Below are positions 23,598 through 39,697 of a stretch of DNA of 64,000 nt, piece by piece. Source of the stretch: an uncultured delta proteobacterium (GTDB taxonomy: Bacteria; Desulfobacterota; DSM-4660; Desulfatiglandales; HGW-15); contig CAVUFY010000008.1 in assembly GCA_963740905.1 (NCBI GenBank), positions 190,444 to 254,443 of the forward strand. The letters are read 5' to 3'. Position 1 is the stretch's first letter, and each line of letters opens with the position of its first letter. Position numbers and translations under genes: made by a program. The notes below the pieces were generated by a model. The model saw only the letters and a program-made list of their open reading frames with translations, ran no database searches and had not been told where the DNA came from.

Positions 23598-24976
23598 TTA
23601 TTCGCTCACAAGCTTGTCCAATATCCTGTGAATCTCCTCTTCGGGCAATACCGCTTCCTCGACGGCTGCTTCCCGGATGGTCCGGTTCGTTTCAAAAGCC
23701 TTCTTCGCCAGAGCCGCGGCCCTATCATATCCAATGTATGGAACCAAGGGCGTTGCCAAAGCGAGACTCTGTTCCAAAGAGGAGGAACATTTTCCCTTGT
23801 TGGCCGTGATGCCCTTGACACACTTCTCCGCCAGAACAGAGGCCGCCTCAGCCAGCCATTCTATGGACTGAAGCAGATCATAGGCCATAACGGGGAGCAT
23901 CACGTTGAGTTCAAAGTTGCCTGCCTGTCCCCCCAACGTGATCGCGCTGTCGTGGCCGATCACCTGAGCGCACACCTGAAGGACGGCTTCAGGAATGACC
24001 GGGTTCACTTTTCCCGGCATAATGGATGAGCCGGGTTGAAGGCTGGGAATGGTGATTTCACCAATACCGCACCGCGGTCCTGAAGAGAGCCAGCGAATGT
24101 CATTGGCGATCTTGATGAGACTCACTGCGATGGTCTTGAGAATCCCGCTTGCCTCGACAACCGAATCCTGCGCAGCCTGCGCTTCAAAATGGTTCACAGC
24201 TTCCCTTAATGAAATGCCCGTCTCATCTGATATCCTCGCGATCACCTTTGAAGCAAACTCAGGATGAGTATTCATCCCGGTTCCGACTGCCGTGCCTCCC
24301 AACGCGACCTCTGAAAGCCGCGGTTCCACCGCCCGAAGACGCTCCATCCCCAGTTGGACCTGCCGGGCGTAGCCGCTGAACTCTTGCCCGAGAGTCACAG
24401 GGACCGCATCCTGAAGATGGGTTCGGCCGATTTTCTTGATCTCGCGGAAAGCGTTGCTCTTTTCTTCCAGCGCTGTCCGGAGTCGATCCAAGGCAGGGAT
24501 AAGATGGGTCTCTATTTGAATTAATGCTGCGATGTGAATCGCTGTGGGGATGACATCGTTGCTTGACTGACCGAGATTCACGTGGTCATTGGGGTGGATG
24601 GGAACCTTCCCCCCCGCCGACCTGTGATCATTTCGTTGGCCCGGCCGGCGACGACCTCATTTGCATTCATGTTGGTAGAGGTCCCTGAACCGGTCTGAAA
24701 CACGTCTACCACAAATTGGGCATCTAGCTTTCCCTGGCAAACCTCCTCGGCTGCCGATGCGATCATCTCAGCCACATCCGGATCGAGGCGACCGAGTTCC
24801 TTGTTCACAAAGGCTGCATGCTTCTTGATCATGCCGAGGGCCCGGATCATGAACTTCGGAAACTTGAGCCCGCTCACGATGAAATTCTCCGCTGCACGTT
24901 GTGTCTGCGCGCCATAGTAAGCGCTTTCCGGTACTTTCACCTCGCCCATGCTGTCTTGCTCGGCACGAAAGTTCAT
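23598..24976 (-). pseudogene. fumC: Class II fumarate hydratase split by a one-base frameshift in a G7 run (24609-24615)
   Basis: N-half ([24 protein letters not shown]) and C-half ([26 protein letters not shown]) are in different frames. One extra G restores ...[15 protein letters not shown] and a 459-aa protein. Confidence 0.88.
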
Positions 24977-25028
24977 GATAAACACTCCTTTCTGTTTCCG
25001 CACGCTCCGCGTCGGAGACGCCTTCCTT

Positions 25029-25138
25029 TGGGGCTTCCACCATGACCCACTGACTTTTCGGCGCCGATTGACGCCACTGCAAAAGTGGTTGCGGCTCTTA
25101 AGAGACCACCCCTGGGCCGGACCTTAGACCTTCTCCGC
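25029..25138 (+). repeat. Repeat family F, longest copy (between citrate synthase and fumC)
   Basis: Aligns with 6691-6783 and with the reverse complement of 6399-6452. Confidence 0.75.
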
Positions 25139-28612: not shown

Positions 28613-29413
28613 TCATTCCATTCTCTTATAGAGTATGCCCACCCCGAACGGATCGTCCATAGCTTCACCGATCGCCTTCTTTAGACTAGAAGGGTCATGG
28701 CTTTCCTTGAGGGGATGGACCCACTCCTTGAGGTGATCCCAGGTCTTAAACTGTTTGTCAAAGGTAACACAGGACGTATACACATGAAAGATGGCAAACC
28801 CGTGATGCTGAATCCCCTCCATGAGGGTCTTGGTGATGCCTTCCGGGTCGCCGGCAAACAGGCGCGCCACGAAAGAGGCCCCGTAGGAAAGAGCCAGCAG
28901 GCTGGCGTTTAACGGATTATCCGCGGTGCCCTGGGGCGAAGCCTTTGTTTTGAACCCCACCGGAGAACTGGGAGACGGCTGTCCCTTGGTCAGCCCGTAA
29001 ATGGAGTTATCGAAAAGAAGGTAGTTCACATCTATGTTACGCCGGCAGATGTGGGGAAGATGACCTCCCCCGATGCCCAGGCCGTCACCGTCCCCCCCTA
29101 CGGCAAACACCGTCAGTTCGGGGTTGGCCAGCTTTACGCCTGTCGCCACGGGGAGTGTCCTTCCGTGAACCGTGTGCAAGCCGTAGGTGTGAGTGAAAAA
29201 AGGATAACGGCCGGCACACCCGATGCCTGACACGGTAACGACCTTGTGATGAGGCAAGCCCAATCGCTGAATCGCGTTATTCAAGCCCTGATGAATTCCG
29301 AAATAGCCGCACCCGGGGCACCAGGTGGGAAGGCTCTCGGAGCGGATATCCAAGTCCCGGGACGCCTGAATCTTCGCCACCTGCGCGCTAAGTACTTTAC
29401 CCGACGTTTTCAT
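28613..29413 (-). CDS. korB: 2-oxoacid:ferredoxin oxidoreductase beta subunit (probably 2-oxoglutarate, by context)
   Basis: TWCPGCG, SGIGCAGR, HGRTLP, GGDGDG, DNSIYGLTKGQPSP TPP-binding motifs. Confidence 0.9.
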   Translation of the reverse strand: MKTSGKVLSAQVAKIQASRDLDIRSESLPTWCPGCGYFGIHQGLNNAIQRLGLPHHKVVTVSGIGCAGRYPFFTHTYGLHTVHGRTLPVATGVKLANPELTVFAVGGDGDGLGIGGGHLPHICRRNIDVNYLLFDNSIYGLTKGQPSPSSPVGFKTKASPQGTADNPLNASLLALSYGASFVARLFAGDPEGITKTLMEGIQHHGFAIFHVYTSCVTFDKQFKTWDHLKEWVHPLKESHDPSSLKKAIGEAMDDPFGVGILYKRME

Positions 29414-29424
29414 CTTTCTTTCCG

Positions 29425-31191
29425 TTATCTTGACCTGATGATGCTCCTCAGTTTATCAAGGATCAAAGTTGAAGACATAGGCATTCCGGGTGTCCGGTTG
29501 AGTCTCACCACGTCCTTTCTGTGAAGATGTCCTATGAGGTTGGCCAGCTGTCCTGAATGATTCAGTTCCGGAATCAGGATTTCTTTGCACCGGCCCATGA
29601 ACTCGCGGATGATCTCGCCGTGATAGGGAAAGATCGAGGTAACCTTCATGGCTCCCACGTTTAGCCCTTCTTTGTGTGCCCTTGTTACCGCCTCCAAGCC
29701 TGAACCAAACGTGGATCCCCACGCGATGATTCCCACGTCCAATGCCCCGCCGGGTGAGAACTCCCGCGGTGAGGGGAGATCAGGCAGGGCGCCCTGTATT
29801 TTCCTATGCCTCTTTTCGGTCATCTTCATGTGGTTATCAGGAGAATAATCCGGGATGCCGCTCTCGGCGTGTTCCAGGCCCGTGGCATTGAAAAGAAATC
29901 CTTCCTGTCCCGGCACCGCACGAGGCGAAACGCCCGAATCCGTCACCCCGTATCTCCGGTACTTTCCTTTACTCTCATTTCCAGGATAGACATTCCAGTT
30001 CTCCCGGTCTTTTTCCGACAGCACGGGGAGCTTCACGTTTTCGACCCGGTTGTTCAGGAAAAAATCACTCAGAACAACCACGGGAGTCTGATATTTCTCC
30101 GCCAGCTGGAAGCTCCTCATGGTATAAGTGTAGCATTCCATGACGTTGGTGGGGGCGATCACGATGCGCGCGGAATCGCCGGGACCTCCGAAAACCGCTG
30201 CATGAAGGTCGGACTGCTCCGTCTTGGTGGGAAGCCCCGTAGCCGGCCCGCCGCGCTGCGCATCGATGATGACAGCCGGGGTCTCGGACATGATCCCGTG
30301 AGTGATAAGTTCCGTCATGAGCGCGAAACCGGGACCCGAGGTAGCCGTCATGGCCCTTTGTCCTGCAAAGAAGCTTCCCAGAACCGCACCTATGGATGCT
30401 ATCTCATCCTCCATTTGCACTACTCTTCCCCCTCGCTGGGGCAGCGCTTTCGCAAGATATTCCATGATGGGTGTTGCAGGGGTAATGGGATAACCGAAGT
30501 AGAGCTTCAGCCCCGCATCCAACGCACCACGCGCAATCGCCTCGTTGCCTGACAAGAGGATCTTCTCCTTCTCCTCCTTTGTTGAAACCGCGAGCTCCTG
30601 GACAAGGTCCTTCCTGTACTCCTCCTCCGCGTACCGATGCCCTGCATCGAAGCTCTTGAGATTGGCTTCCAGCACCTTCTCCCCTTTTGGCCCGAATTTC
30701 TTCCGGATAACCCCATGAAAGGAATCTTTCGGCAGTCTGAAAAGTGCTGCAAATGCCCCCAAAGCCGCCAGGTTCTTTCCTCTGGTGCTTCCGGAGGCCG
30801 CAGCGGCAAGGTCCGAAAAAGGTATGCCATAAAGGCGGACATCCGGCTCCACGTGGGCCGCGATGGAAACGGTGGAATCCACGTAGGAAGGAGGCCTATT
30901 GTCGAAGAAAACGAAGGCGCCCTTTGCGAGAAAGGGAATCCTCGACTGGGACTGCTTGTCATCCAGAGAAATCAGAACATGGGTTCGGTCGTCGAGCGCA
31001 GGCATTTCCTCATTGCCGAACCTGGACAGGGTTACGCACCGGCCGAAACCCCTGATCTCCGCAGGGTAGGAATCAAATGCCAGAACGGAAAAGCCGGCCA
31101 CGGACATGGCCTCATTCAGAATACCGCCGGCGGCGATCGTCCCATCGCCCGACATTCCACAAATTTCAACCGTAAGATCTACAAGTGCCAT
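29425..31191 (-). CDS. korA: 2-oxoacid:ferredoxin oxidoreductase alpha subunit (gamma-alpha fusion)
   Basis: SYPAEIRG, GYPITPAT, QMEDEIAS, ATSGPGFAL, QRGGPATGLPTKTEQSD; ATG 31191 is 1 nt after the upstream stop. Confidence 0.9.
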   Translation of the reverse strand: MALVDLTVEICGMSGDGTIAAGGILNEAMSVAGFSVLAFDSYPAEIRGFGRCVTLSRFGNEEMPALDDRTHVLISLDDKQSQSRIPFLAKGAFVFFDNRPPSYVDSTVSIAAHVEPDVRLYGIPFSDLAAAASGSTRGKNLAALGAFAALFRLPKDSFHGVIRKKFGPKGEKVLEANLKSFDAGHRYAEEEYRKDLVQELAVSTKEEKEKILLSGNEAIARGALDAGLKLYFGYPITPATPIMEYLAKALPQRGGRVVQMEDEIASIGAVLGSFFAGQRAMTATSGPGFALMTELITHGIMSETPAVIIDAQRGGPATGLPTKTEQSDLHAAVFGGPGDSARIVIAPTNVMECYTYTMRSFQLAEKYQTPVVVLSDFFLNNRVENVKLPVLSEKDRENWNVYPGNESKGKYRRYGVTDSGVSPRAVPGQEGFLFNATGLEHAESGIPDYSPDNHMKMTEKRHRKIQGALPDLPSPREFSPGGALDVGIIAWGSTFGSGLEAVTRAHKEGLNVGAMKVTSIFPYHGEIIREFMGRCKEILIPELNHSGQLANLIGHLHRKDVVRLNRTPGMPMSSTLILDKLRSIIRSR

Positions 31192-31192
31192 A

Positions 31193-32209
31193 TCAAAACT
31201 GTGTCCACCAGGATGTGTTAACCTTGATCCCCTGAACTTCAAAAATGCTTTCCGCCGCCGCCTCCGCCTCTATCCTGCCTCCCAGAAGGTTTATCGCCGC
31301 AGTGCGACCAAGACGGACGGCGTTGTCGTGACCGATAGAAATCCAGTAGTCGTGAATCTGAGGGTGATAGATCTGGGCACAGTCCCCTGCGGCGTATACT
31401 TCCTCGACGCCGGTATTCAGGAATTCATCGACCAGAATGCCCCTGTCAATACGAAGCCCGGAGCCGGCCACAGAGCGGACATCAGGGACAAGACCGAAAA
31501 AAGCGCCGATGATGCCGACTTTGATCTTGTCTTCGTTCAGCTCGACTTCGCAGGCATGGCTGGAGACGCGGGCTATGCTTTTCGGGCGACGGTCCAGGAG
31601 GACTTCCACACCCTGCTGAGAAAGATGGTGCGCCGCTTCTTCCACCACGACCCTGTCATATTTCATAGGCCAGAAGGCTTCCTCATCAAACACAAAATAG
31701 ACTTTCCTGTTCATCTTGAGAAGGGCCTTTGTCAAGGCAAAAGAGGTAAGATCCCCTCCCATCACGAGGACCGAATCCGCACGGGAGAGCCTCCGGACCC
31801 ATGTCTTGGCATCTTCAGGTGTCTTGAGCGTCAGCAAGAGGTCTTGAAAAATCAGAAGAGGCTCTGGTATCCGAGGCTTTCCACCTACGGCGAGAATCAG
31901 CCCCGTATAGCGCACGATCTCTTTATGATCCAGGATGACACCCTTATCCGCGAGGCTGAGCCTAACCATTTTCTGGCCGGTTCGAAGCTTGACCCCTTTG
32001 TCCTTGTATTCTTCTGTGGGACAAACGTACAGGGAGGCTTCGGGAATTTCTCCGGCGATGAAGCCCGGCAGCAAATGAGGCCTGTAGCAGCTTTCCCTGT
32101 CCCTGCTGATAAGCGTGACATGAGCACCGGGGACTTTTTCCTTCAGGGTCAGGGCCGCCTGATTTCCCGCCGGTCCGTTACCCACAACGACAAAATGCTC
32201 TTCAGCCAT
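31193..32209 (-). CDS. FAD-dependent pyridine nucleotide-disulfide oxidoreductase-like flavoprotein (degenerate NAD(P) motif)
   Basis: VVVGNGPAG and VYAAGDC FAD motifs; the second Rossmann motif reads VMGGDLTS. Confidence 0.85.
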   Translation of the reverse strand: MAEEHFVVVGNGPAGNQAALTLKEKVPGAHVTLISRDRESCYRPHLLPGFIAGEIPEASLYVCPTEEYKDKGVKLRTGQKMVRLSLADKGVILDHKEIVRYTGLILAVGGKPRIPEPLLIFQDLLLTLKTPEDAKTWVRRLSRADSVLVMGGDLTSFALTKALLKMNRKVYFVFDEEAFWPMKYDRVVVEEAAHHLSQQGVEVLLDRRPKSIARVSSHACEVELNEDKIKVGIIGAFFGLVPDVRSVAGSGLRIDRGILVDEFLNTGVEEVYAAGDCAQIYHPQIHDYWISIGHDNAVRLGRTAAINLLGGRIEAEAAAESIFEVQGIKVNTSWWTQF

Positions 32210-32281
32210 TGATCTGCCCTTCCCCTACCCTTCTCTCCATATCACTTTAGCTTTCTTGAAAAGTTGTGAGAATCATGATCC

Positions 32282-33982
32282 TCACGATAGTCTCATAGAC
32301 CTAGAATGACACTTTTCCTCAAGGTCCACCTTGGTCACGGATATGCAGTCCACAGGGCAAACCCGCACGCACTCCCCGCACCGGATACACCGGGTATTGT
32401 CGATGACGATGGCGTTCACGTCCCGCCAGCGGGACGTCTCCACGAAACCTGTGATCGCGCCTACGTCGTTGGTCTCTATCTCTTTGACCAGTTTAATGCA
32501 GTCGCGGGGCGCCACATCAACGCAGTAACGGCAGTAAATGCAGCGGCTCACATCGATCTCATAGTGGAGGTAGCATAGATAACATCGCTTGGATTCTTCC
32601 GCTGCCTGCTCCCTGGTTAATCCTGTTTCTACTTCGGTCTTCGCGCCCTTCAAGCGCTCCTTTTCAGGCTGGACCGTAGGCATCTCCTGTCGCGGCAGAT
32701 AGTCCCAGGTTCGTTTCCTGTCCGTGATCTCGGCGTCTTCCATCCTGACAACCCTCTCACGGAAAGAGTTTGTCGTGAGATCCCGGGCAATGTTTTCCGC
32801 CGCCCTTCGGCCCATGCCCACCGCTTCGATCACGGTGGATGGGCCCGTAACATAGTCACCGGCCACGTAGAGCGCTCTCCCATCTTTTTCAGCCGTGGCT
32901 TCGATCGGCTCGGGTCGCTGGCCCGTGGCGACAATGACCGTGTCCGCGGGAATAGGGAATTCACTTCCCTTGATGGGGATGATGGTTCGCTTTCCGTCGG
33001 ATTCTGCAAGACCCGGGTCGGTCCTGACAAATTCCACGCCCTCCACCCTCCGCTCTCCCAGAACTCGGCGGGAAAGCACGAGGGACCGAATCTTGATGCC
33101 TTCCTTTCTTGCTTCCATCACCTCATCTTTGGTAACCGCGATATCTTCCTCTGTTCTCCGCAGGCAGATCGTTACATCCTCCGCCCCAAGCCTCCGGGCC
33201 GAGCGGGCGCAATCAAAAGCCGTGAACCCTGCTCCGATCACAAGAACCCGGCGTCCGATGACAGGCGGTCGCCCGAGGCAAACATCCATCATGAACTCGA
33301 GACCGGCATAAACCCCGCTTAGACTTTCCCCGGGCACTTTCAGGGGTATGGACTTGTAGCACCCTGCTGCGAGCAGGACCGCGTCGAAATCTCTGAGAAG
33401 TTCCTCCACCGCCACATCCCTGCCGACTCGAACTCCTGTCCGGAGTGCCACTCCCGTTTCCAGAACGCGACCGACCTCCTCATCCAAGACGTGGCGGGGG
33501 AGCCTGAACTCCGGAATTCCATACCTGAGCATACCTCCCGCCTTGTGGAGAGTTTCAAGAATGGTCACGGAAAAGCCGAGCGTGGAAAGATCGTGGGCCG
33601 CCGCGAGACCGGCGGGCCCTGATCCGACGATGGCTACTTTTTTGCCCAGGGAAGCAAGAGGGCCTTCCGTGAAGTGGGGAGGACGTTGTTTCAGGTCCGC
33701 CGCAGCCCTCTTGATGTGACAAATATTGACCGGACGGCCCAGTTCCGGCTCACCGTGCCGGCACTTGTCTTCACAGGGCCGGGAACAAATCCTGCCGAGC
33801 ACGCCGGGAAAGATGTTGGCCATTCGATTGATTTCGTAGGACTCGTCGTATTTTCCCTCGTAGAGCGCACGAATGTAAGCCGGGATGTTGGTTGCAGCGG
33901 GGCAAGCCGCCTGGCAGGGCACATTGACACTGACGTAGTAAAAATCTTCCGGGTCGGTGGAGTAAACGACTTGTCTGTCCAT
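32282..33982 (-). CDS. GltD/NfnB-like FeS flavoprotein with C-terminal ferredoxin domain
   Basis: PCQAACP...LGRICSRPCEDKC...IC, GSGPAG, GGMLRYGIPEFRLP, GAGFTAFD..R, CLRR, KRCYLC, CIYCRYCVDVAP, CIRCGECVRVCP; SD GAGGTG before ATG 33982. Confidence 0.9.
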   Translation of the reverse strand: MDRQVVYSTDPEDFYYVSVNVPCQAACPAATNIPAYIRALYEGKYDESYEINRMANIFPGVLGRICSRPCEDKCRHGEPELGRPVNICHIKRAAADLKQRPPHFTEGPLASLGKKVAIVGSGPAGLAAAHDLSTLGFSVTILETLHKAGGMLRYGIPEFRLPRHVLDEEVGRVLETGVALRTGVRVGRDVAVEELLRDFDAVLLAAGCYKSIPLKVPGESLSGVYAGLEFMMDVCLGRPPVIGRRVLVIGAGFTAFDCARSARRLGAEDVTICLRRTEEDIAVTKDEVMEARKEGIKIRSLVLSRRVLGERRVEGVEFVRTDPGLAESDGKRTIIPIKGSEFPIPADTVIVATGQRPEPIEATAEKDGRALYVAGDYVTGPSTVIEAVGMGRRAAENIARDLTTNSFRERVVRMEDAEITDRKRTWDYLPRQEMPTVQPEKERLKGAKTEVETGLTREQAAEESKRCYLCYLHYEIDVSRCIYCRYCVDVAPRDCIKLVKEIETNDVGAITGFVETSRWRDVNAIVIDNTRCIRCGECVRVCPVDCISVTKVDLEEKCHSRSMRLS

Positions 33983-34077
33983 GCTCACCTCGTCATGTTT
34001 GGTGCACAACCTATCCCATCAAATTTTCATCACGAAAAGGAACATCTTCATCCCTTCTTCCGATTTCGTGCTTTCTC

Positions 34078-34792: not shown

Positions 34793-36514
<1,722 letters not shown>

Positions 36515-37019
36515 GTTGTCTATGCCTTTCTCTCCGTGATCAAACCCGCCGACGCGGCTTTCCTGCTGCGAACATGGACTTTTTCAGCACCCTGCTAGAT
36601 TAGAAGACACCGCCACAGGGAGAAATAGGGTAAATCCTGTATTTTTTGGTCAACAGACAATGCACTTTTGCACGTGTGAGACGAGATTGTCAAAATGAAA
36701 CCTGCCGCGGTCGTGATGATTCAGTTTCGAGTGGGTCCACCTGTATCAATGAACTAGCCGCGCTCCCGGGGAGGAGTTGAAGAGATCCCTCTCCGGGGGA
36801 CGAGGCGGGTTTTTGTTCCTATATAAACGCCCCCGCAGCGAAGCGCCGGGGTACAAGTGCTCAAGACTTAATCGTTACCCGCAGCGGGCCTCACATGGAT
36901 GACACCCGGATGGTGGGATTCTCCCCCGTTGACTTTGCCTCTGCGAATGGTTATCTAACGAACGATTCTGAATTTTTCGCCAACAAGAACTTAACCACCT
37001 CATGCCTAGGAGGGGAATC

Positions 37020-38075
37020 ATGAGCCAGGAATCGCCTCTCGAGTGCCGGATACTGGAAAGGGTCAAGGAAAGAGATAAAATCGGTGTGTGGGGTTTCGGC
37101 AATGTTTCAAGGGACGTCGTGTTGTCGCTGGTGGATCAGGGACTCGGGAAGGAGATCGTTTTCTACGGAAGACCCAAGGAAAAATATCCCAACAGGGCCG
37201 GGACCTGGATCGAAGACCTGAAAGCCAACTCCATTCATCGTCCTCGCATTTACGGCACCAACCAGACTGATGACATGGCCGGTCTCGACGTGATCTTCAT
37301 CGGCGTGGGCGTTCCGCGCAAAGAGGGCCAAAGCCGGAGGGACCTTCTCGCAGTCAATACGGAGGTGATCGCCGAAGCCTCCTTCGAAATCCGCAGGCTT
37401 TATCAGGGCTGCGGGACCAAGGACTTACCCATCCTCGTTTACATGGGGAATCCTGTGACCACGATGACCTGGGTGGGTTACAAGGCTACAGGATTTCCAC
37501 GGGCAAACATTGTGGGCCAGGCCGGAAACCTGGATGCGAGAAGGATCTGCCATGCCCTATCCAAACTGATCGGTCTCTCAGGCAACGACCTGAGAGGGAT
37601 TGTCTTCGGAGAACACGGCGACTCCATGGTCGCCAGCACCCGGTTTTTCTCTGTAGGAGGGGTGCCTCTTGACGATGTTGTTCGCGCCCAGGGGATCGAC
37701 CCGGCCGTGATCAACCGCGCCATCGAAGACGCGAAAAAAGGCGGAACCCATTTCGTGAACGAAACCGGTCAGAGCGCGTCGGCGGGCCCCGCGAGGGCCG
37801 CATGTGATATGCTGCGCTGTATGATTCTCGGGGAGGCCGAGGTTCAGCCTGTGATCGCTATCTTTGAAAAGGAATACGGTCTCCTGAAAAAAGAGGACGG
37901 TCTCGATTCCATGAGTTTCGGGGTGCCTGCCAAGATTGGGCCCTACGGTGTGGAAAAGATCTACGAACTTCCGGTGGAGGATATCAGGGGCCAGTTGGAG
38001 AGATCCGCCTCCATTATCAAGGAGGACATCAAGGCCGCCGCAGGGATCCTGAAGGAAAAGTACGGCATTACCTAG
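37020..38075 (+). CDS. mdh: Malate dehydrogenase (LDH-like), atypical cofactor site
   Basis: GVPRKEGQSRRDLL (Arg specificity residue), GNPV, LDARR, GEHGDSMV; SD GGAGGGG before ATG 37020. Confidence 0.88.
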   Translation: MSQESPLECRILERVKERDKIGVWGFGNVSRDVVLSLVDQGLGKEIVFYGRPKEKYPNRAGTWIEDLKANSIHRPRIYGTNQTDDMAGLDVIFIGVGVPRKEGQSRRDLLAVNTEVIAEASFEIRRLYQGCGTKDLPILVYMGNPVTTMTWVGYKATGFPRANIVGQAGNLDARRICHALSKLIGLSGNDLRGIVFGEHGDSMVASTRFFSVGGVPLDDVVRAQGIDPAVINRAIEDAKKGGTHFVNETGQSASAGPARAACDMLRCMILGEAEVQPVIAIFEKEYGLLKKEDGLDSMSFGVPAKIGPYGVEKIYELPVEDIRGQLERSASIIKEDIKAAAGILKEKYGIT

Positions 38076-38133
38076 CTGCCTCGTGGAGGCGTCTTGCGCC
38101 TCTTATGCTTTCGAGGTCAAAAGGATCTTCCGC

Positions 38134-39564
38134 TTACTTCTGGCTCTTCTTCGGCAGCAGATGAGTGACGCTGCCGAGGAAAATTTCCGCCACCTCTCCT
38201 ACCGTCTCGGAGAGGGTGGGGTGTGGATGGATGCTAAGTCCTACGTCCGCAGGCAGAGCGCCCATTTCCACGGCCAGCACTCCCTCTGAGATCAACCCTT
38301 CGGCATGGCGTCCTGCGATACCGAACCCCAGAACCCTTTCCGTCTCCCCATCGACGACCATCTTTGTCACTCCCGCAGCGGCGTCTATCGTGGTGGCCCG
38401 GGGTGAAAATTTCCAAGGGTAGCGTTCAATCCTCACAGTTCGCTTTTGCTTGCGCGCCTGTTCTTCGGTCAGCCCACACCACGCAACCTGAGGATCGGTG
38501 AAAACCACGGCAGGGATGGCCCTCGCATCAAAAGCCGACGGCTCTCCCGCTATGACTTCCGCCGCAACCTTTCCCTCCCGAAAGGCCTTGTGCGCAAGCT
38601 GAGGTCCTCCGGCCACATCGCCAATGGCAAAGATCTTCTCATCCTTTGTCCGCTGCTGCTCGTCAACGACCACGAAGCCCTTATCATTCACTTTCACGTT
38701 GGTCTTGTCCAGACCGATACCCTCGGACTTGGGGTCTCTTCCCACGGCGACCAGCACCCGATCAAAGGACTGCTCGGATTTGTCTATGTCCCCCTCAAAC
38801 ATGACCTCCACCCTGTCCGATTGCTCCTTCATGGATTTGACCCGGGTGTTGAAATGAATGGCGTCGAAAAGTTCTTCCAGTCTTTTCGCGAGAGGGGCCA
38901 CAAGATCGGTATCGGCCCCCCGCAACATCCTTTCGCTCCGAACCGCGAGAGAAACGCGGGTTCCCAGGGAGGCGTAAACCGTTCCCATTTCGAGGGCGAT
39001 ATACCCTCCGCCGATGATGAGGAGTGAGTCGGGTATCTCGGGAAGTTCCAGTGCCCCTGCCGAATCCATGATGCGACTTCCCTTCTCAAACTTTGTGCCC
39101 GGGAAAGGAGCGGGGCACGACCCGGTCGCAAGAATGGCATGACGGTACTTGATGTGGCTCACCTCCGAATCATGGAGGCGGACCGTGCCGGAATCTTCGA
39201 ACTCAACCCGGCCTTGTATCAGCTCCACTCCCCTCTTCTTGCTCAGAGTGACCAGCCCATCCGCCAGCTTGTCCACCACCTCATCTTTCCATCTGCGAAT
39301 CTTTTCCGCATCAATTTGCGGTTTGCCAAAAGCCACGCCCATTCTTTCCGAGCGCTGCGCGTCATGGATGAGTTCCGCCAGGGAGAGCAAGGTCTTGGAC
39401 GGAATGCAGCCTCGGAACAGGCATTCACCCCCGGGCCTCGGTGCCATGTCAACCATCGTGACTTCCAGGCCGAGATCCGCCGCTCGGAACGCCGCAGCGT
39501 AGCCTCCCGGCCCGCTTCCGATGACGAGAACCTGTGTCTCTTCGGTAAATTCTCCCATAACCAT
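38134..39564 (-). CDS. lpdA: Dihydrolipoyl dehydrogenase (E3)
   Basis: GSGPGGY, GGECLFRGCIPSK redox disulfide, IHPHPTLSE; start set at ATG 39564 because the track's 5' extension is repeat DNA. Confidence 0.95.
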   Translation of the reverse strand: MVMGEFTEETQVLVIGSGPGGYAAAFRAADLGLEVTMVDMAPRPGGECLFRGCIPSKTLLSLAELIHDAQRSERMGVAFGKPQIDAEKIRRWKDEVVDKLADGLVTLSKKRGVELIQGRVEFEDSGTVRLHDSEVSHIKYRHAILATGSCPAPFPGTKFEKGSRIMDSAGALELPEIPDSLLIIGGGYIALEMGTVYASLGTRVSLAVRSERMLRGADTDLVAPLAKRLEELFDAIHFNTRVKSMKEQSDRVEVMFEGDIDKSEQSFDRVLVAVGRDPKSEGIGLDKTNVKVNDKGFVVVDEQQRTKDEKIFAIGDVAGGPQLAHKAFREGKVAAEVIAGEPSAFDARAIPAVVFTDPQVAWCGLTEEQARKQKRTVRIERYPWKFSPRATTIDAAAGVTKMVVDGETERVLGFGIAGRHAEGLISEGVLAVEMGALPADVGLSIHPHPTLSETVGEVAEIFLGSVTHLLPKKSQK

Positions 39565-39585
39565 TGCCCAAATCCCCCTTTTGAA

Positions 39586-39697
39586 AATCCGAAGCACGAA
39601 TATCGAAATTCGAAGTATCTCCATCACAGTTACGAGTGACGAGTAACAAGTAGATTATAAATGAACTTGTCACTCGTGACTCGTCACTTGTCACTTT
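39586..39697. repeat. Adjacent heptad arrays: CGAAAT-type (about 39586-39616) and family A core (39628-39697)
   Basis: AGTTACGAGTGACGAGTAACAAGTA equals the reverse complement of 3496-3520; TCGTGACTCGTCACTTGTCACTTTC is also present at about 63556-63580. Confidence 0.75.

Follow-up and report, generated by a model that had tools for sequence, protein, structure and literature searches.

We analyzed a 64,000-nucleotide stretch from the genome of an uncultured deltaproteobacterium from sediment (GenBank assembly GCA_963740905.1, contig CAVUFY010000008.1, forward-strand positions 190,444 to 254,443), referred to here as the window. Within it lies a gene, P0001, for a divergent malate dehydrogenase (MDH) of the lactate dehydrogenase (LDH)-like family. 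The same genome (5.29 Mb, 99% complete) also encodes a canonical MDH, and we refer to P0001 as the paralog. The reading frame runs as described in an earlier first-pass annotation: 351 codons, with an ATG that follows a ribosome-binding site and a stop codon that ends at 38075. This ATG is equivalent to the Met at which homologues begin. The gene and the features of its N-terminal part are as follows.

37020..38075, + strand: coding sequence of the divergent LDH-like MDH paralog (P0001), 351 amino acids (aa), intact open reading frame
37008..37015, + strand: ribosome-binding site AGGAGGGG, read from the sequence, 4 nt 5' of the ATG
37020..37076, + strand: clade-specific N-terminal extension, residues 1 to 19, with conserved Cys9 (37044-37046), predicted to be disordered
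37092..37109, + strand: dinucleotide-binding glycine motif GFGNVS, residues 25 to 30, GxGxxS in place of GxGxxG
37167..37172, + strand: Gly50-Arg51, C-terminal end of beta-B, where NAD-type enzymes have the selecting Asp followed by a hydrophobic residue; proposed 2'-phosphate site
37173..37196, + strand: basic beta-B/alpha-C loop P52-K53-E-K-Y-P-N-R59, one residue longer than in canonical MDHs

The cofactor pocket

The sequence VFYGRP forms residues 47 to 52 (37158-37175). The first-pass annotation had recognized this motif, but the range given there, 37161-37175, begins 3 nt late and covers only FYGRP. In an HMMER alignment to the Chlorobium MDH 1GV1 and in a MAFFT alignment with PDB sequences, Gly50 falls on the beta-B Asp ("LLD") of NAD-type enzymes. 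An AlphaFold2 model built from a 39-sequence alignment (mean predicted local distance difference test score, pLDDT, 87.9; predicted template modeling score 0.88) has beta-B at residues 45 to 49, which puts Gly50-Arg51 at the C-terminal end of this strand. Alignments and model thus agree with the annotation that, where beta-B ends, a Gly-Arg stands in for the Asp that selects NAD. The glycine motif is altered, as was also noted there, with Ser30 replacing the third Gly of GxGxxG. The paralog therefore lacks both features expected of an NAD-type enzyme: Gly50-Arg51 stands in place of Asp-Val/Ile, and the fingerprint is GFGNVS.

This pocket is shared by a clade of close relatives. We counted conservation in 153 clade sequences; the clade comprises at least that many, all at least 66% identical. 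Position 50 is Gly in 142 sequences, Ser in 10, and Ala in 1, while Arg51 is present in all 153 and Pro52 in 145. Phe26 in the glycine motif and Arg59 in the basic loop are invariant (153/153 each), and position 30 is Ser in 150 sequences and Ala in 3. Outside the clade, almost all of the ~100 nearest family representatives carry Asp or Glu at position 50. The ratio of nonsynonymous to synonymous substitution rates (dN/dS) against orthologues is ~0.05-0.06, with saturated synonymous sites, indicating strong purifying selection. Given this ratio and the invariance across 153 sequences, the unusual pocket has been fixed by selection in a functional enzyme.

Published rules associate an acidic residue ending beta-2 with NAD and a small residue plus a basic residue or Arg with NADP; likewise, GxGxxG goes with NAD and GxGxxA with NADP, and MDH and LDH switches have been engineered on such rules (PMC5817062, PMC12609799). 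Those engineered switches (Thermus flavus MDH, Streptomyces coelicolor MDH, and the D53S or I51K/D52S variants of Bacillus stearothermophilus LDH) eliminate the acidic residue and introduce Arg or Ser beside it. They are laboratory constructs, mostly of the dimeric MDH branch, whereas the pocket of the paralog is natural and clade-fixed. A natural NADP-specific case is chloroplast NADP-MDH (EC 1.1.1.82), which has Gly for the acidic residue and Ser/Arg on the 2'-phosphate (G84, S85, R87, and S88 in the Sorghum enzyme; PMC5817062).

Archaeal enzymes of the family share the dipeptide. In a joint alignment, the GR of the paralog falls in one column with the GR of MJ0490 from Methanocaldococcus jannaschii (1HYE; LVLIGREHS), the SR of 9SD3 (LVLISREKS), and the AR of the Aeropyrum pernix MDH (2D4A; LLLIARTPG), whereas this column is Asp-Val/Ile in the Chlorobium MDH, the genome's own canonical MDH, and a Metallosphaera MDH. 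The likeness to archaeal NADP-using enzymes that had first been proposed is thus borne out column for column, and the Gly/Ser/Ala variation at position 50 of the clade matches the variation among those enzymes. One clade member (locus L027) even has the Ala-Arg of A. pernix, in FYARPK. Both MJ0490 (1HYE/1HYG) and 9SD3 keep Arg102 and GEHGDSM, and 9SD3, from Methanococcales, was deposited in the PDB under the title "Malate dehydrogenase (NADP(+))." Lee et al. in 2001 reportedly crystallized MJ0490 with NADP bound, found that it binds and prefers NADP(H), and identified Gly33, Arg34, His36, and Ser37 as determinants, to which we take Gly50, Arg51, and Lys53 of the paralog to be equivalent in position. 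The A. pernix enzyme, an LDH-like MDH, is said to use NADP(H) well (Kawakami et al. in 2009).

Fold, active site, and relatives

Domain, sequence, and structure matches all agree with the first assignment of the paralog to the LDH-like MDH family. It matches the Pfam domains Ldh_1_N (PF00056, 65.4 bits, cut-off 27) and Ldh_1_C (PF02866, 60.6 bits, cut-off 22.6). Its best PDB matches by phmmer are bacterial tetrameric MDHs from Chlorobium, Chloroflexus, and Salinibacter (E ~1e-40, ~30% identity). The model has a Rossmann N-domain and an alpha/beta C-domain, as in the LDH/MDH superfamily, and Foldseek aligned it to many MDH structures with template modeling scores of 0.89-0.92, normalized to target length (~0.9 to 4CL3 and 4PLH). 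The paralog falls short of the curated MDH models, with 197.5 bits against NF004863 (cut-off 283) and 172.4 bits against TIGR01763 (cut-off 351.85).

The active-site features were located by alignment.

37317..37337, + strand: mobile active-site loop PRKEGQSR, containing Arg100 (in PRK) and Arg106, aligned with GLPRKPGMTR of 1GV1
37533..37544, + strand: Asp172 (Asp168 in LDH numbering), partner of the catalytic His, and Arg175 (Arg171), substrate-carboxylate anchor
37614..37616, + strand: catalytic His199 (His195) in GEHGDS

The retention of the specificity Arg and of the catalytic His and Asp, which the first-pass annotation had reported, extends to the whole clade. Arg100 (Arg102 in LDH numbering), the residue by which MDHs select oxaloacetate, is present in 153 of 153 members, as are Arg106 (Arg109), Asp172, and His199; Arg175 is present in 152. 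We therefore consider it extremely improbable that the paralog is a decaying or noncatalytic duplicate. Scores under the family cut-offs and the name "hypothetical protein," given to several members at NCBI, would suit a pseudo-enzyme, but the frame is intact, synteny is conserved, the structural model is confident, and the catalytic residues are (nearly) invariant. Pseudogene status was rejected on this conservation together with the dN/dS of ~0.05.

The closest known enzymes in both sequence and structure are the bacterial tetrameric LDH-like MDHs (Chlorobium 1GV1/1GUZ, Chloroflexus 4CL3/1GUY, and the Bacillus type; EC 1.1.1.37). The paralog shares with them the two domains and Arg102, Arg109, Asp168, Arg171, and His195. 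However, these enzymes are NAD-specific and have GAGNVG and the beta-B Asp, whereas the paralog has GFGNVS, Gly-Arg, the 19-residue N-terminal extension, and several insertions. We considered descent from the archaeal NADP-type MDHs and rejected it, as the bacterial tetrameric enzymes are closer in sequence and fold, the N-terminal domain alone best matches Asp-bearing enzymes, and the clade branches among Asp-bearing representatives. The match to 1HYE (E 7e-30, 107 bits) ranks behind ~20 bacterial MDH entries, too distant for close kinship, and the N-terminal 100 residues match 1HYE at an E value of only 0.01. The archaeal enzymes also differ in detail: MJ0490 and 9SD3 have the fingerprint GASGxVG, with an extra Ser, and A. 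pernix MDH has a canonical GAGKVG, no N-terminal extension, and a gene outside any tricarboxylic acid (TCA) cluster. The Gly-Arg motif is therefore convergent, since the clade has closer kin than these archaeal enzymes.

Membership in the chloroplast type was likewise rejected (TIGR01759 61.5 bits, cut-off 345; best structural matches to tetrameric LDH-like enzymes). Chloroplast NADP-MDH belongs to the dimeric, cytosolic-type branch, and its regulation by two disulfides is documented. It carries regulatory cysteines in terminal extensions, and the paralog clade has an N-terminal extension with Cys9. This extension, modeled with a pLDDT of 49-61, is absent from canonical MDHs in the MAFFT alignment. 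It holds a single conserved cysteine, to which Cys131 and Cys177 add, and there is no C-terminal extension. By analogy, thiol or disulfide regulation of the paralog as in chloroplast NADP-MDH is possible. The near-invariant cysteines of the clade are Cys9 (150/153), Cys131 (37410-37412; 151/153), and Cys177 (37548-37550; 153/153); Cys262 and Cys267 are also frequent.

Insertions in the clade relative to Chlorobium MDH lie at ~128-135 (YQGCGTKD), where Cys131 sits, and at ~226-232 and ~289-297 (LKKEDGLDS). An invariant Trp24 (153/153) directly precedes the first Gly of the fingerprint.

Members of the clade come from metagenome-assembled genomes (MAGs) of Desulfatiglandales-like bacteria and of a few other Desulfobacterota and Nitrospirota. 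When 5.8 billion proteins were searched with a word index, >300 relatives were returned; among the 120 matches listed, identities were 74-90%, and the named sources were MAGs of Desulfatiglandales, Thermodesulfobacteriota, and "Deltaproteobacteria." In species-representative genomes, the clade occurs in ~37 MAGs, all with proteins at least 66% identical to the paralog. Their labels are Desulfatiglandales, Desulfobacteraceae, Desulfarculaceae, one Desulfohalobiaceae, and two Nitrospirota-labeled bins. An exhaustive HMMER scan of 1.84 billion representatives clustered at 50% identity found one full-length clade representative (62% identity, 501 bits), followed beyond the clade by matches of ~140 bits and ~37% identity. 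This steep fall marks the clade as tight and isolated. In an unrooted FastTree phylogeny of ~115 sequences, the clade forms a long branch among Asp-bearing sequences.

A second malate dehydrogenase and the TCA gene cluster

The canonical MDH, encoded on contig C9 (C9:36586-37518), carries the motifs GAGNVG and VLLD and shares 31% identity with the paralog. Its gene stands in an operon-like row (C9:31500-41100; locus L083 4556-14071) with genes for a PYC_OADA carboxylase subunit, a 235-aa protein, SdhA, SdhB, and, after the MDH, pyruvate:ferredoxin oxidoreductase (PFOR). The 235-aa protein, beside SdhA, has no Pfam match and is possibly a membrane anchor. The PFOR consists of two open reading frames of 583 and 574 aa, 70 nt apart.

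The genome thus holds two parallel Sdh/Frd and MDH sets. Among 41 related genomes, canonical MDH occurs in nearly all and the paralog in 9, of which 7 have both copies. In the remaining two, the incomplete MAGs G012 and G017, we found the paralog but no canonical MDH. From these counts, we conclude that the paralog is an accessory second MDH and not a replacement.

The paralog gene is monocistronic, between a divergent frdA (34793-36514, - strand) on one side and a convergent lpd (38134-39627, - strand) on the other. One further signal follows it.

38085..38103, + strand: terminator-like GC hairpin 10 nt past the stop codon; weak T tail; consensus match only

The surrounding cluster in the window encodes a split fumarase, citrate synthase, aconitase, KorB, KorA, a 338-aa flavoprotein, a 575-aa GltD-like FeS flavoprotein, Frd/SdhB, Frd/SdhA (with no membrane anchor), the MDH paralog, Lpd, E2, E1-beta, and E1-alpha. 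In 37 related loci, the paralog adjoins subsets of these same TCA genes in varying order and orientation. Because the TCA neighbors are kept despite rearrangement, the association points to functional linkage and not frozen synteny. KorAB and the two flavoproteins (window 28613-34009, - strand) travel together in most related loci (L004-L037). Among the 41 relatives, the paralog and the Kor-associated GltD-like flavoprotein occur together in 8, the paralog alone in 1, the flavoprotein alone in 2, and neither in 30 (Fisher p = 4e-6). The anchor-less FrdA has a distribution similar to that of the paralog among the relatives.

The neighboring E3 (Lpd) is also altered in its cofactor site. Compared with E. 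coli Lpd (4JDR), it has GGGYIA for GGGIIG and SLAVRSERMLR for DVVEMFDQVIP; in 4JDR terms, these changes include G185A, E203V, M204R, and P210R. We take them to be part of the published set that switched E. coli Lpd to NADP. On the basis of these motifs, at least two neighboring, normally NAD-linked enzymes, the MDH paralog and E3, appear to have independently gained NADP-type pockets. Two facts therefore change the picture drawn in the first-pass annotation: the paralog exists beside a canonical NAD-type MDH, and it belongs to a conserved accessory TCA module with other NADP-type enzymes.

The gene neighborhood also bears on the substrate. The paralog might be an NAD(P)H dehydrogenase recruited from an MDH scaffold for another 2-oxo/2-hydroxy acid, such as 2-oxoglutarate/2-hydroxyglutarate, sulfopyruvate/sulfolactate, or another dicarboxylate. 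MJ0490, a broad-specificity L-2-hydroxycarboxylate dehydrogenase, is a precedent, and relatives are named "L-2-hydroxycarboxylate dehydrogenase (NAD(P)+)" in the PDB. All curated MDH models score below cut-off, the next relatives are just ~37% identical, the clade has its insertions, and two loops differ (PRKEGQSRR instead of PRKPGMSRD, and SASAGPA instead of SAYYAPA). In addition, the gene often adjoins those of a 2-oxoglutarate oxidoreductase. However, the oxaloacetate-defining Arg100, Arg106, and Arg175 are invariant, and the constant neighbors, citrate synthase, fumarase, Frd/Sdh, and aconitase, are makers and users of malate and oxaloacetate. In G012 and G017, both incomplete MAGs, the paralog was the only MDH copy found. 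Taken together, a different substrate seems quite improbable, and malate and oxaloacetate are the better candidates.

Elsewhere, the genome encodes acetyl-CoA synthase (CdhC domain; Wood-Ljungdahl pathway) and DsrAB. Together with the citrate-synthase TCA gene set, this identifies the organism as a reducer of sulfate or sulfite that has the Wood-Ljungdahl pathway as well. We looked for a PntB transhydrogenase across the whole genome and found none.

The class II fumarase gene (23598-25123, - strand) is in two frames, an N-terminal part at 24578-25123 and a C-terminal part at 23598-24656, which overlap at ~24578-24656. Apart from this split, which could come from a frameshift (making fumarase a pseudogene) or from faulty assembly, the TCA cluster is intact.

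Proposed role of the paralog

From the observed residues, fold, conservation, paralogy, and gene linkage, we infer the cofactor preference, substrate, and flux direction of the enzyme. We consider it probable (roughly 60%) that the paralog interconverts oxaloacetate and malate with a preference for NADP(H), as part of an accessory TCA module wired to NADP. Oxaloacetate or malate would be bound via Arg100, Arg106, and Arg175, and hydride transfer would be carried out by the His199-Asp172 pair. Position 50, as Gly, Ser, or Ala, offers no carboxylate to hydrogen-bond the 2'/3'-OH of NAD or to repel the 2'-phosphate of NADP. Arg51, backed by Lys53 and Arg59 in the lengthened loop, appears to be placed for 2'-phosphate binding. 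The housekeeping role would fall not to the paralog but to the NAD-type MDH of the sdh-mdh-PFOR operon. The patchily distributed module of the paralog would comprise citrate synthase, aconitase, KorAB with the two flavoproteins, anchor-less Frd/SdhAB, and fumarase, and would adjoin a pyruvate dehydrogenase (PDH) operon whose E3 has a predicted NADP-type pocket.

The likeliest role for such an enzyme would be NADPH-dependent conversion of oxaloacetate to malate, in a reductive or anabolic direction of the module. Whichever pyridine nucleotide is used, oxidizing malate is strongly endergonic, and the NADPH pool is usually more reduced than the NADH pool, so an NADP-linked MDH should favor oxaloacetate reduction.

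Several points weigh against this assignment. The argument on direction takes for granted, as is customary, that NADPH is kept more reduced than NADH. NADPH would itself be a product of a KGOR-like Kor and of a PDH with an NADP-type E3, and the module could equally run oxidatively. The substrate range could differ, given the shortfall against the curated models, the clade insertions, Trp24, and the changed active-site loop. As for the cofactor, loss of the Asp is no guarantee of NADP preference: D44G alone shifted Microcystis MDH just 1.5-fold (PMC12609799). Methanococcales enzymes with Gly-Arg or Ser-Arg are routinely assayed with NADH (PMC11631191), which makes dual specificity plausible.

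These last points speak for an enzyme that still uses mainly NAD(H), or both cofactors equally, with Gly-Arg as a lineage peculiarity and with a difference from the canonical MDH in regulation or kinetics. The Methanococcales relatives are active with NADH (PMC11631191), and dual-specificity MDHs are known even with the Asp in place, the effect of a lone Asp-to-Gly change being small (PMC12609799). Nevertheless, we think this unlikely. The (near) invariance of Arg51, Arg59, and Ser30 in 153 sequences points to selection on the pocket, and the same dipeptide marks family members that are named for NADP or reportedly have it bound. The genome already has a canonical NAD-type MDH, and the neighboring E3 appears to have been remodeled to NADP type independently.

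A bolder version of the NADP(H)-preferring assignment is tentative and, on balance, doubtful. It would make the paralog an NADPH-specific oxaloacetate reductase in a TCA module that is wired to NADP(H) and shared horizontally. With this module, Wood-Ljungdahl sulfate reducers could turn the TCA cycle backward for anabolism, drawing on the NADPH pool. Besides citrate synthase and anchor-less Frd/Sdh, the module would include a 2-oxoglutarate oxidoreductase, KGOR-like and accompanied by its two flavoproteins, with the PDH and its NADP-type E3 adjoining. Catabolism would be left to the Wood-Ljungdahl pathway and to the operon of the NAD-type MDH and Sdh, and anabolism would be split off by cofactor, not by compartment or time. 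The NAD- and NADP-type MDHs could also work as a pair, as a malate/oxaloacetate transhydrogenase in a genome without PntAB, and the Cys9 extension could provide thiol control like that of chloroplast NADP-MDH. A reversed, NADP(H)-wired module remains speculative because Kor and the NADP-type E3 would make NADPH.

Bacterial MDH is generally regarded as NAD-linked, and reviews of bacterial NADPH sources do not include it (PMC4518329). We found no paper describing a natural NADP-preferring bacterial LDH-like MDH or this clade, in keeping with the first-pass remark that such an enzyme would be unusual in a bacterium. Literature searches on such an enzyme and on an NADP-MDH of Desulfatiglans-type bacteria turned up only engineered, chloroplast, and archaeal enzymes and a cyanobacterial enzyme of dual specificity that retains the Asp. 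The superfamily and this type of cofactor switch are thus already known, and what lacks a description that we could find is the natural bacterial version in this clade. The clade also exposes an annotation gap, as it is missed by the curated models and several of its members bear no functional name at NCBI.

If the assignment is true, it would suggest how a catabolic Wood-Ljungdahl pathway could run alongside a reversed TCA cycle. For related sulfate reducers that degrade polycyclic aromatic hydrocarbons and have both the Wood-Ljungdahl pathway and a citrate-synthase TCA cycle, a 2025 study proposed that the former oxidizes acetyl-CoA and that the latter, reversed, fixes CO2, and it raised the question of how they stay separate (PMC12137691). 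In the culture N47, that study measured MDH, by NAD(H) assays only, at 0.9 nmol per min per mg, ~70-fold below the 65-70 of isocitrate and succinate dehydrogenases (PMC12137691). An NADP-preferring MDH may explain low NAD-based activity in such cultures, and for N47 only if it carries the gene. The assignment would also alter how redox balances are drawn up when Desulfatiglandales-type hydrocarbon degraders are modeled metabolically, and would offer a natural template for NADPH-dependent malate production.

Another, distant member of the LDH/MDH family, P0196 (329 aa; locus L084 2195-3184), also lacks the Asp and has IYGFGRPGG. We considered it as a functional sister of the clade on account of its GFGRPG, and it does group with the clade in the tree, but it is only ~29% identical and has no TCA neighbors, and we rejected it. 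The grouping probably reflects long-branch attraction or an independent switch, and P0196 may represent another independent change of cofactor, in a different pathway. Its gene overlaps the end of a gene for an FMN_dh-rubredoxin fusion and precedes one for a CDGSH/Fer4_19 protein.

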